Position numbers and translations under genes: made by a program. The notes under the pieces were generated by a model, which saw only the letters and a list, made by a program, of their open reading frames with translations, was not told where the DNA came from and ran no database searches. From a virus, in IMG/VR virus record IMGVR_UViG_3300028797_000632, positions 1 through 23,973 of that record: DNA of 23,973 nt. One strand, written 5' to 3'. Position 1 is the first letter of the stretch. Each line of letters opens with the position of its first letter. Shown in pieces: positions 18,850 to 23,720 of the stretch.

Positions 18850-19024
18850 TATCTTCTCTCCTTACTGGCATATAATGCTTGCATTCATAAGGACAATATG
18901 GCGAAAGTATACCACCGCAACCTTTAAGATACTCTCTGCATACTTCGCCGTGTATGCAAGATACTCTACCACCATCTGCATATCTGTATGAATTGGATCT
19001 GTATCCGGCCGAATCATCCTTCAT
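18833..19024 (-). CDS. small Cys-rich protein
   Basis: 63 aa with CIHGEVCREYLKGCGG...YCPYECKHY. Confidence 0.4.
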   Translation of the reverse strand: MKDDSAGYRSNSYRYADGGRVSCIHGEVCREYLKGCGGILSPYCPYECKHYMPVRREDNGKQW

Positions 19025-19218
19025 GATTTGTCATTTATTTCAACTGTTGGCTGATCTATAACATCGGCAATACACGCGCTCAAAGTAATCATCATCCTCA
19101 TTACGTCGTTATATACCGCATCTTTTCCTTGTTTTTTGGCATCTTCAAGCCACTTCTGGTACATATCACGGCGTTTGTATAACAGCGGTAACAAAGCATC
19201 AGCATCAATTAATCTCAT
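19021..19218 (-). CDS. stand-alone 'MRLIDADAL' N-terminal module protein (paralogue family)
   Basis: 65 aa. MRLIDADALLPLLYKRRD... is the same N-terminal module found fused to DUF551-like domains in 19205..19732, 22077..22598 and 22601..22948. Confidence 0.5.
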   Translation of the reverse strand: MRLIDADALLPLLYKRRDMYQKWLEDAKKQGKDAVYNDVMRMMITLSACIADVIDQPTVEINDKS

Positions 19219-19732
19219 CGTTATTCTCCTCTACTTTTGCGCTACTCATATAAAATTCTCCAGATGCGACATTGTATGGTTGTTCGACTACGAATGGTTT
19301 AAGTATAGTATTAATCATCTCATCATTATTCTCATTGTAATATTCTGGCAATGGCATCCATGCAACTACGCTATAGTCTTCTAAAAATCCGTATTCTCTA
19401 TCGCAATAAAACCATCCTTTTTCACCTTTTCTATTACAGAAATCATATTCGTCTATTTGATATAAATCGTTTGCGAATGTCATTACATCATACACATACG
19501 GATTATATTTAGATTTAGTATCACAGGCTACCAAATATGCGCCATCTTTTTCAGGCAATCTCTCACCGCATGGTATCCACTGTGGCACTGTCGGCTGTGA
19601 AACAACAATTGGAGTAACAACATCTGCCATAACTGCCTGTATTAACTTTTCTTTATGTGTGTCTGCTATGCTCCATCTATCCAATAACGCTTCACATAGC
19701 GCATCCGCATCAATTAATCTCATCATGTTCAC
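19205..19732 (-). CDS. DUF551-like protein (MRLIDADAL N-module plus W-I-P-C-x-E-R-L-P-E ... A-W-M-P-L-P-E-P-Y C-module)
   Basis: MNMMRLIDADAL...QPTVPQWIPCGERLPEKDGAYLVA...VVAWMPLPEYY. Confidence 0.6.
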   Translation of the reverse strand: MNMMRLIDADALCEALLDRWSIADTHKEKLIQAVMADVVTPIVVSQPTVPQWIPCGERLPEKDGAYLVACDTKSKYNPYVYDVMTFANDLYQIDEYDFCNRKGEKGWFYCDREYGFLEDYSVVAWMPLPEYYNENNDEMINTILKPFVVEQPYNVASGEFYMSSAKVEENNDEIN

Positions 19733-19907
19733 CTATCCTTCTATTCCATGCAGCAATTGCTTCTATTTCTGTATTATAGTCCCATCCAATCATATATGAC
19801 GCAGGACAACACTGATTTGAACACTCCACAATCCATGTTTCCAGTTCTTTTTTATGGTTTCTTATCGCCTCGCCACCGCAGAACGGACATAGTTTCAATT
19901 CATTCAT
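19710..19907 (-). CDS. Lar-like restriction-alleviation family zinc-ribbon protein
   Basis: 65 aa. MNELKLCPFCGGEA...VECSNQCCPAS matches the Lar/RalR small protein signature (CPFCGG...C..C). Confidence 0.5.
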   Translation of the reverse strand: MNELKLCPFCGGEAIRNHKKELETWIVECSNQCCPASYMIGWDYNTEIEAIAAWNRRIGEHDEIN

Positions 19908-20451
19908 CTTGCCCCTCCCTCATATTCTTCAGCAATTCGGCAATCTCAGTAAACCGTCTGCCTGTCTTTTTTAAATCTGATTCACCATAGAATCCAGTAT
20001 TTCCACTTGACCATACAACATTGTAATGTATGCCACTGTCATAGTATTTTCTAGTAACAATACCAGTGCTATTTATTAATCTAACCTCGTCGCCCACCTC
20101 AATGCTACCGTTCAGCTCCTCATACTCGCGGATTTTTGCGATTGCTTCTGATGCAGTATTTTGATAAATATGTCCATAGTCCCAATCATCGCCAAAAATA
20201 TTTTCTCGCACATCAGCGTTCATATGAGCAAGTTTTCTCGCCGCATCCCACGCATCATTGAGTCCATTCTTATACGCTTCATCATACACTTCATCAAAAT
20301 CATATTTATCAGGATCAAATGGTTCTAATTTGTCTATCCCGTCACTATCAAACACCAACGACTTGAAACGTTTGGCTCTATACAAATAATGTTCGAAATC
20401 GTCATCTCTGCTAAACGGTTCATCCTCAATCTCGATTATGTATTTACTCAC
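19900..20451 (-). CDS. hypothetical acidic protein
   Basis: 183-aa ORF with a TGA stop. Confidence 0.5.
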   Translation of the reverse strand: MSKYIIEIEDEPFSRDDDFEHYLYRAKRFKSLVFDSDGIDKLEPFDPDKYDFDEVYDEAYKNGLNDAWDAARKLAHMNADVRENIFGDDWDYGHIYQNTASEAIAKIREYEELNGSIEVGDEVRLINSTGIVTRKYYDSGIHYNVVWSSGNTGFYGESDLKKTGRRFTEIAELLKNMREGQDE

Positions 20452-20761
20452 CGTTATTCTCCTTTAACATCTTTGCGCCGCAATTCTGACAATAATATCT
20501 TCCGCTATCATAGCCATATTGAACTTCATGGCATCGACTACATTCTTGACCGCTACCAGTATCAATCCAATATCCATGCGGAAATTCCTTAATCGGACAC
20601 CACCCTGGTTTTTTATCCAAATAATCACGACTATAATCGTCAAATGCCGGAGTGCCATTCTCTAATTCGCAAGCCGAAGTTTGGTGAAAGTTTGACCAAC
20701 ATCTAAAGTAGCAACTTTCACATGAATTTGGCACATCCAAATTGTCAATAATTACACTCAT
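20444..20761 (-). CDS. Cys-rich hypothetical protein (about 12 Cys)
   Basis: 105 aa with CESCYFRC...CSRCHE...CQNCG. Confidence 0.45.
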   Translation of the reverse strand: MSVIIDNLDVPNSCESCYFRCWSNFHQTSACELENGTPAFDDYSRDYLDKKPGWCPIKEFPHGYWIDTGSGQECSRCHEVQYGYDSGRYYCQNCGAKMLKENNGE

Positions 20762-20765
20762 ATCA

Positions 20766-22076: not shown

Positions 22077-22598
22077 CTATTTGTTATACCAACAGACATA
22101 TGGATATTTTTCCTTCGCTTTGTTTAAGTTACATTTCCAGACGCTAACAGATGTCTCGTTCTCACCGTCATGGAAATATCCTGTGCCGTCATCCGAAATA
22201 ATACTTCCTCTTCTTACACAATCAATAAATTCTTGAGTTGTATAAACATGTCCAATACAATTTTTTTGGATTTCTTCTTTAGCTTTCGTTTCCCCCTTAT
22301 ACGGTTCAGGCAACGGCACCCATGCACATCCTTTAATGTCTTGCAGATAGTGGTGTATTCCGTCAATATACCCAATGTGCCATACTCCTTCTGGATTTCC
22401 ATCACCGTAATACTCTGCTAAAAACATATCATTCGGCTCTGACAATAAGACTTTTTTTCCTATCTCTGGCAACCTCTCACTACATGGTATCCACTGTGAC
22501 ACTGTTGGCATTTCCTCGATAATATCAAGAGTGTCATTACAATGGTCAATGCGGTGTATTATCTCCATCCATAACGCATCAGCATCAATTAACCTCAT
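22077..22598 (-). CDS. DUF551-like protein (MRLIDADAL N-module); the only long gene in the window terminated by TAG
   Basis: MRLIDADALWMEIIHRID...VSQWIPCSERLPEIGKK...CAWVPLPEPYKGE. The stop is TAG at 22077-22079, in frame with the following zinc-ribbon ORF (TAG-TGC-TTG-GAA-GGG-GGA-AAT-ATG). Confidence 0.6.
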   Translation of the reverse strand: MRLIDADALWMEIIHRIDHCNDTLDIIEEMPTVSQWIPCSERLPEIGKKVLLSEPNDMFLAEYYGDGNPEGVWHIGYIDGIHHYLQDIKGCAWVPLPEPYKGETKAKEEIQKNCIGHVYTTQEFIDCVRRGSIISDDGTGYFHDGENETSVSVWKCNLNKAKEKYPYVCWYNK

Positions 22599-22600
22599 TT
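22573..22600 (-). repeat. about 25-nt dispersed DNA repeat, GCATCAGCATCAAT(T/C)AA(T/C)CTCAT on the plus strand, encoding MRLIDADA at paralogue starts; one of at least five copies
   Basis: Near-identical nucleotide copies occur at about 19193-19218, 19694-19732, 22573-22600, 22920-22948 and 23274-23298, with a diverged copy at 23700-23720. Confidence 0.6.
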
Positions 22601-22948
22601 TTATTCCTCCTTATACGGCCCAGGTAATGGCATCCATGCGATAATTTTATTGTATCCGTTCTCATGCCAATGGGCATTACCGTCAATATAATCAATGTCT
22701 GGTATATATTTATAGTTCCAATGCTCACCATTATATGAATTGATTTTTTTAGTAACGAGTACTCTAACCTTTTCTTTTGGCAATTTCTCACTGCAAGGTA
22801 TCCATTGTGACTCTGTAGCGGCATCATTGACATACGACAGAGCTAACTCAAGCCCTTCTACCTTTTCCCACTCACATCTCATATAGCGCATATTAATAGA
22901 TCCTTGAATGTAGTTTATCAAAGCATCAGCATCAATCAACCTTCCCAT
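22601..22948 (-). CDS. DUF551-like protein (MGRLIDADAL N-module)
   Basis: ...ESQWIPCSEKLPKEKVRVLV...IIAWMPLPGPYKEE. Confidence 0.6.
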   Translation of the reverse strand: MGRLIDADALINYIQGSINMRYMRCEWEKVEGLELALSYVNDAATESQWIPCSEKLPKEKVRVLVTKKINSYNGEHWNYKYIPDIDYIDGNAHWHENGYNKIIAWMPLPGPYKEE

Positions 22949-23138
22949 CCTTCTCCACCTCTGGTTCGTGACTCTCGATACTTGTTGAATACCATCTAAT
23001 ATGTCTCACAGGTATATGCCTGTTTGACCCATTGGTTAATCGCATCCAGAGTAGGTCGCACCCAAAACGAACCTCTGTCGCTTCAAATGTTTCCAAATAT
23101 CCATCCCACCATCTTACTGTTACAATGTTAATTTTCAT
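22932..23138 (-). CDS. hypothetical protein
   Basis: 68-aa ORF. Confidence 0.4.
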   Translation of the reverse strand: MKINIVTVRWWDGYLETFEATEVRFGCDLLWMRLTNGSNRHIPVRHIRWYSTSIESHEPEVEKDGKVD

Positions 23139-23298
23139 ATTTTCTCCTCTCTGTCTCTATGGTTGGCGAATTCTCTATCACCCTAATTATCTCATCAGAT
23201 GTCATGGTTGGTTTTGTTCTGTATCCATTCAGAATATCTGCCAAAGCACACAATCCCTTAATTGTTGTCACAAGAGCATCAGCATCAATCAGCCTCAT
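23131..23298 (-). CDS. stand-alone 'MRLIDADAL' module protein (56 aa; MRLIDADALVTTIKGLCALADILNGYRTKPTMTSDEIIRVIENSPTIETERRKYEN)
   Basis: Below the track size cutoff. SD plus ATG are present, and it is coupled to both neighbours. Confidence 0.45.
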
Positions 23299-23300
23299 TT

Positions 23301-23720
23301 TTATTCCCCCTCATACGGTTCAGGCAATACAGGCAATGGCATCCATGCGGTTACATTATCTTGCCGCCATGAAAAATTGTTATTTACAATCGAGAATCCT
23401 TTTGGATATCTCGTTGTTAGAATCGGATTGTAAAACATCTTTTCAACTGTTCCGTTTTTTCTGTACGCTAAATACTCGCCAAATTCTTCCGGTAACCTCT
23501 CGCTGCATGGTATCCACTTCATTTCTGGCTTTACTTCAGGCGCATCAAAAATATCGTGTTTAAACGCTGTCCGTTCTGCAAGGATTGCAGACCATATTCT
23601 CCACTCCTCAATTTTGGTTTCGTCATTTGCGATCTTTCCGACATACGCAAGTGCTTGTACTGCTTGTGCTTCTAAACCGCAAGCTTTTTCATAAAGTACT
23701 TCTCTATCTATCAGGCTCAT
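23301..23720 (-). CDS. DUF551-like protein (MSLIDREVL variant N-terminus)
   Basis: ...EMKWIPCSERLPEEFGEYLAYRK...NVTAWMPLPVLPEPYEGE. Confidence 0.6.
   Translation of the reverse strand: MSLIDREVLYEKACGLEAQAVQALAYVGKIANDETKIEEWRIWSAILAERTAFKHDIFDAPEVKPEMKWIPCSERLPEEFGEYLAYRKNGTVEKMFYNPILTTRYPKGFSIVNNNFSWRQDNVTAWMPLPVLPEPYEGE

Follow-up and report, generated by a model that had tools for sequence, protein, structure and literature searches.

How does a phage come to carry a run of small genes that share their beginnings with some neighbours and their ends with others? The IMG/VR virus record IMGVR_UViG_3300028797_000632 (row P0009) is a contig of 23,973 bp, analysed here in its entirety and referred to as the window, in which every gene lies on the minus strand. 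It contains an array of small genes, several of which encode a C-terminal DUF551 domain and several of which start with the peptide RLIDADAL. The original prediction, made from the letters alone, described this array as a family of rapidly diversifying paralogues with shuffled domains, ongoing gene conversion at their starts and a role in anti-defence or host takeover. We find that the DUF551 copies are old, distinct subtypes gathered in one locus rather than recent duplicates, and that modules re-assort at short conserved motif-coding stretches.

Modules re-assort at conserved motif blocks

The assignment of the C-terminal module to the DUF551 family was borne out by a Pfam scan, in which five open reading frames (ORFs) of the window score 31.8-39.5 bits against PF04448 (gathering score, 22 bits). 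These five lie within 19021-23720, where six consecutive copies had been expected; nine other small genes sit among them, and a sixth copy does exist but lies outside that interval, at 18484-18849, and falls below the threshold (14.6 bits). In alignments, the window domains share a framework with WIPCxE(R/K)LP at the domain start and AWMPLPxPY at its end. The start (M/MG)RLIDADAL is found in five window genes, three of which are fusions to DUF551 (115, 173 and 172 aa) while two consist of this N-module alone (56 and 65 aa), just as had been noticed. A fourth fusion had been proposed as well, but the 139-aa protein concerned begins with MSLIDREVL and is doubtful; its match to the N-module hidden Markov model (HMM) arose from its own membership of the seed, and an independent HMM gives none. 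The copy at 21416..21886 does carry a different, non-IDADAL N-terminal domain, as described.

To place the window paralogues in a wider context, they were compared with a set of ~385 non-redundant DUF551 domains. The paralogues are 31-37% identical to each other, rank only 32nd to 224th among these domains and are not each other's closest relatives, as recent duplicates would be; no long identical tracts were found between them. Every window DUF551 domain has 65-75% identical relatives in other contigs, and there it is joined to different N-modules. For example, the body of the 156-aa protein is 75% identical to those of P0202 (with a 'DDLISRQAAI...' module), P0189 ('MSRLIDADLL...') and P0143 (a third type), the body of the 172-aa protein is 70% identical to that of P0151 and 67% to that of P0201, both with other IDADAL subtypes, and the body of the 139-aa protein is 65% identical to that of P0179, whose N-module differs. 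The same exchange is seen from the other side: in one cluster of N-subtypes (≥ 60% identity, 34 members, drawn from the 120 best N-module matches), the module is followed by a zinc ribbon in 12 members and by DUF551 in 10, stands alone in 6 and is joined to Cys-rich or other partners in the rest, and the subtype of the 65-aa stand-alone gene recurs fused to a zinc ribbon in P0067. The low ranks and the external counterparts together show that the window copies are old subtypes and leave the notion of rapidly diversifying paralogues unsupported.

Breakpoints of such exchanges are directly visible in two near-identical relatives. In contig L003 (JGI), identity to the window holds at 98.5% from 23973 to ~21647 (the 98.5% match itself reaches 21629), after which similarity drops to 70-80% or is absent, and in the 39-kb contig L002 (ENA) it holds at 99% from 23851 to ~22475, where the sequences diverge. 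In base-level alignments, the 156-aa gene loses its identity to L003 directly behind TGGATACCATGC (WIPC), and the 173-aa gene its identity to L002 once the WIPCSE codons are passed, so that both observed recombination breakpoints fall at the WIPC block; past them, the encoded proteins keep the N-part but have a different DUF551 body. Differences between the window and L003, counted per gene, rise towards the breakpoint (0, 0, 0, 0, 4, 13, 16). Up to 21629, the gene order of L003 matches that of the window (139-56-68-115-173-Zn-DUF551, in aa or by domain), and beyond it L003 has, likewise in window order, homologous but diverged stretches matching 21322-21424 and 20762-20967; in L003, however, the 'MNNAEKFKEIF' N-module is fused to a DUF551-like body with a Cys-rich tail, whereas in the window it is fused to a zinc ribbon. 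The 56-aa stand-alone gene is identical in L002-L006. L088 and L089, contigs that come from two further samples, both stop at 19372, beside the AWMPLP block of the 172-aa gene, which fits a junction there without proving it. Taken together, the WIPC breakpoints and the swapped combinations of bodies and N-modules strongly support domain shuffling, which is far more general than the original prediction had it. A search of the whole window for near-identical DNA in 50,697 phage records gave no match.

The motif blocks are also visible as DNA repeats. The 20-nt start block AGRYTRATTGATGCNGATGC occurs five times in the window and not once in 100 shuffles, and the 18-nt WIPC block TGGATACCNTGYNNNGAR was found five times with none expected. 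A junction repeat of 36-53 nt spans PEPYK(E/G)E-stop-AA-ATGAGG (families D2 and D3, the latter 53 nt long and 87% identical). The repeat at gene starts is therefore real, but the copies, said to be nearly identical over the first 25 nt or so, are 72-90% identical over 29 nt. Within the RLIDADAL codons, copies differ only synonymously (AGG/AGA, CTG/TTA/TTG, GCT/GCG), and same-codon pairs at the start block number 55 where 36.9 are expected from window codon usage. The nucleotide similarity of the starts thus comes mostly from nine conserved residues and codon bias, with a modest excess, and does not imply ongoing gene conversion as had been concluded. One lineage-specific trace favours the earlier reading: the Ile codon is ATA in all five WIPC motifs of the window (ATA makes up 21% of window Ile codons), while elsewhere the Ile codon of this motif is ATT in 77% of cases. 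As a separate observation, ATC accounts for 4.5% of Ile codons in WIP motifs of the window and 80 viral-contig loci (L007-L086), whereas its share in the background is 37%. Since a GATC site would arise in TGG-ATC-CC, the shortage may reflect restriction-site avoidance.

Properties of the N-module, the DUF551 domain and the zinc ribbons

The N-module is a two-helix unit of 35-60 aa that starts with (M)RLIDADAL and ends with xPT(V/I). No model for it exists in Pfam, NCBIfam or PHROG, no relative was found in the PDB, the 56-aa stand-alone copy has no Pfam or PHROG match, and its motif strings are absent from the searchable literature, where only unrelated text was returned. As a single-protein homologue search with the 115-aa protein gave 3 matches only, profile searches were needed. 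An N-module HMM of 57 positions identified 1,143 representatives (50%-identity clusters; E ≤ 0.001) among 1.84 billion proteins, and a word-index search gave at least 4,502 matches at E ≤ 10. The carriers are small proteins in which the module is mostly N-terminal but sometimes internal or in tandem (e.g., residues 50-105 and 95-151). Genome relatives of proteins combining the N-module with DUF551 are overwhelmingly from Lachnospiraceae, Ruminococcus, Oscillospiraceae and other Clostridia of gut and rumen; judging from these relatives, the host of the phage is probably a Clostridium-class bacterium. The IDADAL N-module is thus an undescribed family whose sequence clusters number over 1,100; the phages and prophages that encode it are apparently mostly those of gut and rumen Clostridia.

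Other N-terminal parts take part in the same traffic. The Cys-rich N-part 'IIDNLDVPNSCESCYF' of the 105-aa protein (20444-20761) directly precedes an internal IDADAL module in P0065, P0258, P0280 and P0312 and is a further interchangeable module. IDADAL and 'LISRQAAIDAL...LPSAQP' modules co-occur in tandem within single proteins; grouping the two types into one superfamily found no support, with an hhalign probability of 0.7% and only the xP(T/S)(V/A) linker aligned.

The DUF551 family is large, with at least 7,631 matches among 8,000 candidates scored. Across 130 DUF551 sequences, W7, P15, A62, W63 and P65 are invariant, and conservation is confined to residues 7-15 (WIPCxERLP), W52 and residues 62-70 (AWMPLPxPY), the middle varying in sequence and length. 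A full-length AlphaFold2 model of the 115-aa protein was mediocre (predicted local distance difference test, pLDDT, 67), with helices at 7-21 and 30-42 followed by beta-strands, while a model of DUF551 alone, built from the 130 sequences, reached a pLDDT of 84 and a predicted template modelling (TM) score of 0.68. In the latter model, a short strand (8-9) is followed by a long beta-hairpin (20-30/35-46) and a closing strand (59-65). Foldseek comparison of this model with BFVD returned DUF551 proteins as all of its top matches (TM-score 0.6-0.8, probability 1.00), and no neighbour was found in the PDB.

The interspersed Lar-like and zinc-ribbon genes were confirmed, the former by a PF14354 score of 40.5 bits (cut-off, 28.6 bits) and the latter as CxxC...CxxC minigenes that stay below Pfam thresholds. 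The zinc-ribbon C-modules were also considered as Lar-like and rejected: hhalign gave a probability of 52% with only the 13-column CPxCG knuckle aligned, and their score against TIGR03655 is 15.5 bits (cut-off, 39.6).

Layout, surroundings and distribution of the array

The region 17713-23720 contains 19 small ORFs on one strand, separated by gaps of -17 to +10 nt. The counts of promoter-like and terminator-like sites in the array region are not above chance, which together with the tight packing is consistent with a single operon. The proteins are predominantly acidic, with an isoelectric point (pI) below 6 in 17 of the 19 and of 4.2-5.4 in the DUF551 proteins.

Table 1. Repeat blocks, array genes and neighbouring features of the window.
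Feature	Position	Strand	Remarks
20-nt start block AGRYTRATTGATGCNGATGC, 5 copies	19196, 19701, 22576, 22923, 23276	-	gene starts
18-nt WIPC block TGGATACCNTGYNNNGAR, 5 copies	19562, 21641, 22476, 22787, 23499 (to 23516)	-	
25-aa ORF 'MSRLIDVIKENWVAF...'	23760-23837	-	looks like remnant of N-module start
139-aa protein, helical N-part MSLIDREVL... + DUF551 (residues 68-133)	23301..23720	-	PF04448 38 bits; phrog_924
Stand-alone 'MRLIDADAL' N-module gene, 56 aa	23128..23298	-	P0005 in N-module profile search, 75 bits
68-aa gene, no family assigned, overlapping both neighbours	22932..23138	-	
115-aa protein, N-module (MGRLIDADAL) + DUF551	22601..22948	-	PF04448 39.5 bits
173-aa protein, short N-module subtype + DUF551 + C-terminal extension matching phrog_14149	22077..22598	-	
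65-aa CxxC...CxxC zinc-ribbon minigene	21876..22073	-	Pfam zinc-ribbon matches below threshold
156-aa protein, non-IDADAL N-domain (MTIEEFNKY...) + DUF551	21416..21886	-	PF04448 35.3 bits
95-aa protein, 'MNNAEKFKEIF' N-module + zinc ribbon	21136..21423	-	
105-aa protein, Cys-rich 'IIDNLDVPNSCESCYF' N-module + C-terminal zinc ribbon	20444..20761	-	
183-aa very acidic protein, net charge -18	19900..20451	-	recurs in other DUF551 loci
Lar-family restriction-alleviation-like protein, 65 aa	19710..19907	-	PF14354 40.5 bits (cut-off 28.6); phrog_599
172-aa protein (175 aa from upstream GTG), N-subtype 'CEALLDRWSIADTHKE...' + DUF551 + acidic tail	19205..19723 (19732 with GTG)	-	PF04448 33.5 bits
Stand-alone N-module gene, 65 aa	19021..19218	-	
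63-aa Cys-rich gene	18833..19024	-	ATGA overlap with preceding N-module gene
121-aa divergent DUF551-like protein (WIFC...AWKP)	18484..18849	-	PF04448 14.6 bits, E = 0.06; phrog_16814 E = 2.3e-5
811-aa protein, MVP 'shoulder' domain	15253-17688	-	PF11978, 59 bits
Nucleotide-metabolism genes	644-13446	-	
tRNA gene	6761-6851	-	Rfam RF00005, 58.9 bits

Two details of the table concern possible remnants or variants of the N-module. The pair 19021-19218 and 18833-19024 resembles fused N + Cys-rich proteins found elsewhere and may represent either a single gene that was split or such a protein made as two polypeptides, and the identity between the window and L002 starts at 23851, just upstream of the 25-aa ORF. 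The end of the window contig (23973) and the starts of L003 and L004 all fall within ~15 nt of one position, and these common contig ends suggest another variable junction upstream of the array.

Downstream of the array lie the 811-aa MVP-shoulder protein, an NAD-dependent ligase, a ThyA-like protein (261 aa), ribonucleotide reductase (with TSCPD), dUTPase, a nucleoside deoxyribosyltransferase-like protein, DUF1599 ('nucleotide modification associated'), a ThyX-like fragment and a tRNA. Upstream, L002 encodes Sipho_Gp157, AAA_24, ERCC4, RepO, DnaB and a MazZ-like dGTP_diPhyd_N protein (L002 5559-6053); this protein and the nucleotide-metabolism cluster of the window hint at modified DNA. The MVP protein shares 33-35% identity with proteins of uncultured phages of 462-735 kb and 59% with a protein encoded on a 205-kb IMG/VR contig, and the window phage itself may be large. 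In that 205-kb contig the order MVP, ligase, ThyA-like is common with the window, and no DUF551 or IDADAL genes were found within 10 kb in the relatives retrieved via the MVP-like gene, this contig included; the array thus sits at a synteny break, as an accessory insertion. In L087, a 78-aa GIY-YIG ORF at 9289-9525 (~9960-10200 of the window) lies between the ThyA-like gene and a 196-aa helix-turn-helix-like gene and may be the remnant of a homing endonuclease.

To examine how common such arrays are, copy numbers were compared across 160 other loci around DUF551 genes. About 78% of these hold one DUF551 copy (median 1, maximum 5) and ~9% hold arrays of 3-5, so that the window count is at the top of the range; mixed N-termini within an array were seen in L007, L009, L026, L030, L097, L098 and L157. 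The window has 5 IDADAL modules, compared with at most 2 in other loci.

Proposed exchangeable binders, alternatives and known systems

We lean somewhat towards reading the array as an accessory 'Lego' operon that is re-assorted at its motif blocks and supplies a panel of handle-plus-binder proteins against host or defence factors. Its swappable parts are the IDADAL two-helix module, other N-modules, and C-modules of either DUF551 or CxxC zinc-ribbon type. The locus came together, and continues to be re-assorted, through recombination at the RLIDADAL start, at WIPCxERLPE and at AWMPLPEPY-stop-ribosome-binding site-ATG, and the partners in these exchanges come from the same phage population as well as from other phages or prophages. 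The microhomologies could be used by a single-strand-annealing recombinase of the phage to make these exchanges; the AAA_24 protein of L002 is presumably of the Sak4 type, in the relaxed single-strand-annealing recombinase family. The array is probably transcribed as a unit, ahead of the genes for DNA metabolism. The helical N-module may serve as a common oligomerisation or docking handle, and the DUF551 beta-sheet as a scaffold whose conserved ends would form the core and whose variable middle would provide paralogue-specific protein binding. Together, the proteins might then bind a range of host factors or defence systems, their genes lying beside the Lar-like anti-restriction gene. It is only position, acidity, multiplicity and the Lar neighbour that suggest the anti-defence role.

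Several observations weigh against this account. Directly observed breakpoints number only two, and the central 2.7 kb of the array is carried at full identity by a single retrieved contig, the window itself. Confidence in the N-module model is low (AlphaFold2 pLDDT 56-73), and no functional assay of any DUF551 protein appears in the literature searched. The 33 Lar-like ORFs seen in other loci were scanned without a background control, and PADLOC and NCBIfam searches returned nothing relevant. A wider version of the idea, which we hold only tentatively and think rather doubtful, is that IDADAL and its DUF551, zinc-ribbon and Cys-rich partners make up a large, undescribed combinatorial system of Clostridia phages, in which a common handle for oligomerisation or for docking onto a single host hub would be joined to exchangeable target-binding heads, and the junction motifs would also be recombination hot spots, all serving anti-defence or host takeover; if true, it would be the phage counterpart of polymorphic-toxin cassette exchange. 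DUF551 is among the commonest phage domains lacking an assigned function, and this locus and its relatives show it to have conservation at its ends only, cassette exchange at defined motifs and N-terminal handles in common with zinc ribbons. Together, these features give a concrete handle-plus-binder picture with recombination at the junctions, and if the binder idea is true, the arrays would offer a ready collection of small proteins that inhibit host or defence factors, from a group of phages that is poorly studied.

Some alternatives concern the repeats themselves. A young tandem-duplicated family, kept alike at its starts by ongoing gene conversion and diversifying rapidly otherwise, would explain the excess of same-codon pairs at other conserved blocks as well as at the starts (39 vs 30.9 and 23 vs 11.9 expected), the minority codon ATA common to all five WIPC motifs and the 87% identity of the 53-nt junction repeat; we nevertheless judge it improbable, because the bodies are so distant in identity and rank, each has a closer counterpart in another contig, the start-block codons vary only synonymously and long identical tracts are missing between paralogues. 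Two blocks with five exact-pattern copies each, where none is expected, and breakpoints at one of them might also be nucleotide-level elements, be they recombinase or shufflon sites, a diversity-generating retroelement or a regulatory RNA. This idea is largely refuted and has hardly any probability left: the window ORFs that were scanned include no reverse transcriptase, invertase or integrase, no Rfam match lies in the array region, and all copies are direct and in frame, vary only synonymously in their RLIDADAL codons and are kept as protein motifs across thousands of unrelated contigs. The concern that the repeats are assembly artefacts is settled for the flanks, where other samples yielded contigs that match the window at 100% identity (9021-19483, 10596-19372, 22178-23973 and 22422-23877). 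These contigs end inside the array, on one side within the 172-aa gene (19372 or 19483) and on the other at 22178, 22360 or 22422, leaving 19483-22178 covered at 100% by the window contig alone among those retrieved, as would be expected if the central array were a mis-assembly joining co-existing strains. We give this explanation very little credence, since the repeats are imperfect and at most 53 nt long, below k = 141 (a value taken from related ENA contig names, not from the window's own assembler), L003 independently shows the same order to 21629 with diverged homologues further on, and the reading frames of the array are intact and tightly coupled throughout.

Other alternatives accept the modular proteins and give them a different task. 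T4 internal proteins carry a capsid-targeting sequence, and the small proteins of this variable locus, diverse in other respects, begin with nine residues that hardly vary and could likewise be a virion-targeting signal for injected proteins. That is very unlikely here: the T4-type signal is a motif that acts only at the extreme N-terminus and is cleaved by the prohead protease, whereas the present module is internal or tandem in many relatives; more than a peptide, it spans 35-60 aa as a two-helix domain and has a conserved xPTV at its C-terminal end, and its genes lie between replication genes (upstream in L002) and nucleotide-metabolism genes, away from head genes. The proteins could also be modulators of lysis-lysogeny or of host physiology (replication, stress) of the Ea22/YfdS type, modular and early but not anti-defence. 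DUF551 is present in Ea22_V2 of Shiga toxin (Stx) phages and in YfdS of prophage CPS-53, and many relatives of the array proteins come from prophage-bearing Clostridia genomes. Ea22 acts in the lysis-lysogeny decision (PMC10834534), where it favours lysogeny, and YfdS has been linked to oxidative-stress sensitivity (PMC4776307), yfdS mutants being H2O2-sensitive and yfdQRST over-expression inhibiting replication initiation. We consider this role unlikely, although less so than the targeting signal, because the Ead_Ea22 signature (IPR025153) has no Pfam match at E ≤ 1 in the array proteins, the 24 kb contain no integrase or repressor and resemble a large phage with its own nucleotide metabolism, and five or six paralogues seem too many for one regulatory switch.

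Among described DUF551 proteins, EaA of P22 and Stx phages and YfdS of E. coli CPS-53 (PF04448 / IPR007539) share the W-I-P-C-x-E-R-L-P ... A-W-M-P-L-P-x-P-Y framework and the predicted fold with the window proteins, which differ in being present in up to six copies in one operon and in their fusion to an undescribed N-module. A full-length tblastn match to Stx-phage EaA was discarded on inspection, as only the DUF551 part is related and EaA has no IDADAL module. By HMM score, 19710-19907 is a member of the Lar family (PF14354), and Lar-like genes recur in DUF551 loci, but no resemblance to Lar holds for the remaining zinc-ribbon modules, whether in this locus or in N-module proteins from other loci. 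Large phages carry hyperplastic accessory regions, such as the internal-protein and other 'plastic' loci of T4, and the array resembles them in that its small early genes form a variable block where synteny breaks between conserved modules; it differs in being dominated by one domain family with explicit re-assortment of N- and C-modules. In polymorphic toxins, C-terminal modules are exchanged after a short motif (CdiA-CT after VENN, Rhs after PxxxxDPxGL). The window proteins are like these, by analogy only, in that a short conserved peptide motif marks the junction downstream of which C-terminal modules are exchanged, but they are phage-encoded, 50-175 aa long and without a toxin/immunity pair or secretion domain.

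Of the systems described, Ea22 of lambda and Stx phages, encoded in their exo-xis region, is the closest analogue: the N-terminal coiled-coil part is kept while acidic C-terminal domains are swapped, DUF551 being found in variant V2, and a published account calls the Ea22 proteins mosaic and treats DUF551 as portable (PMC10834534). In both cases early accessory proteins would keep a conserved N-terminal part, which in Ea22 oligomerises as a tetrameric coiled coil, and exchange acidic C-terminal domains. The N-module of the window, however, is predicted to be a short helical hairpin where Ea22 has a long coiled coil, and a multi-copy array in a phage probably of Clostridia takes the place of the single gene known from Enterobacteria.

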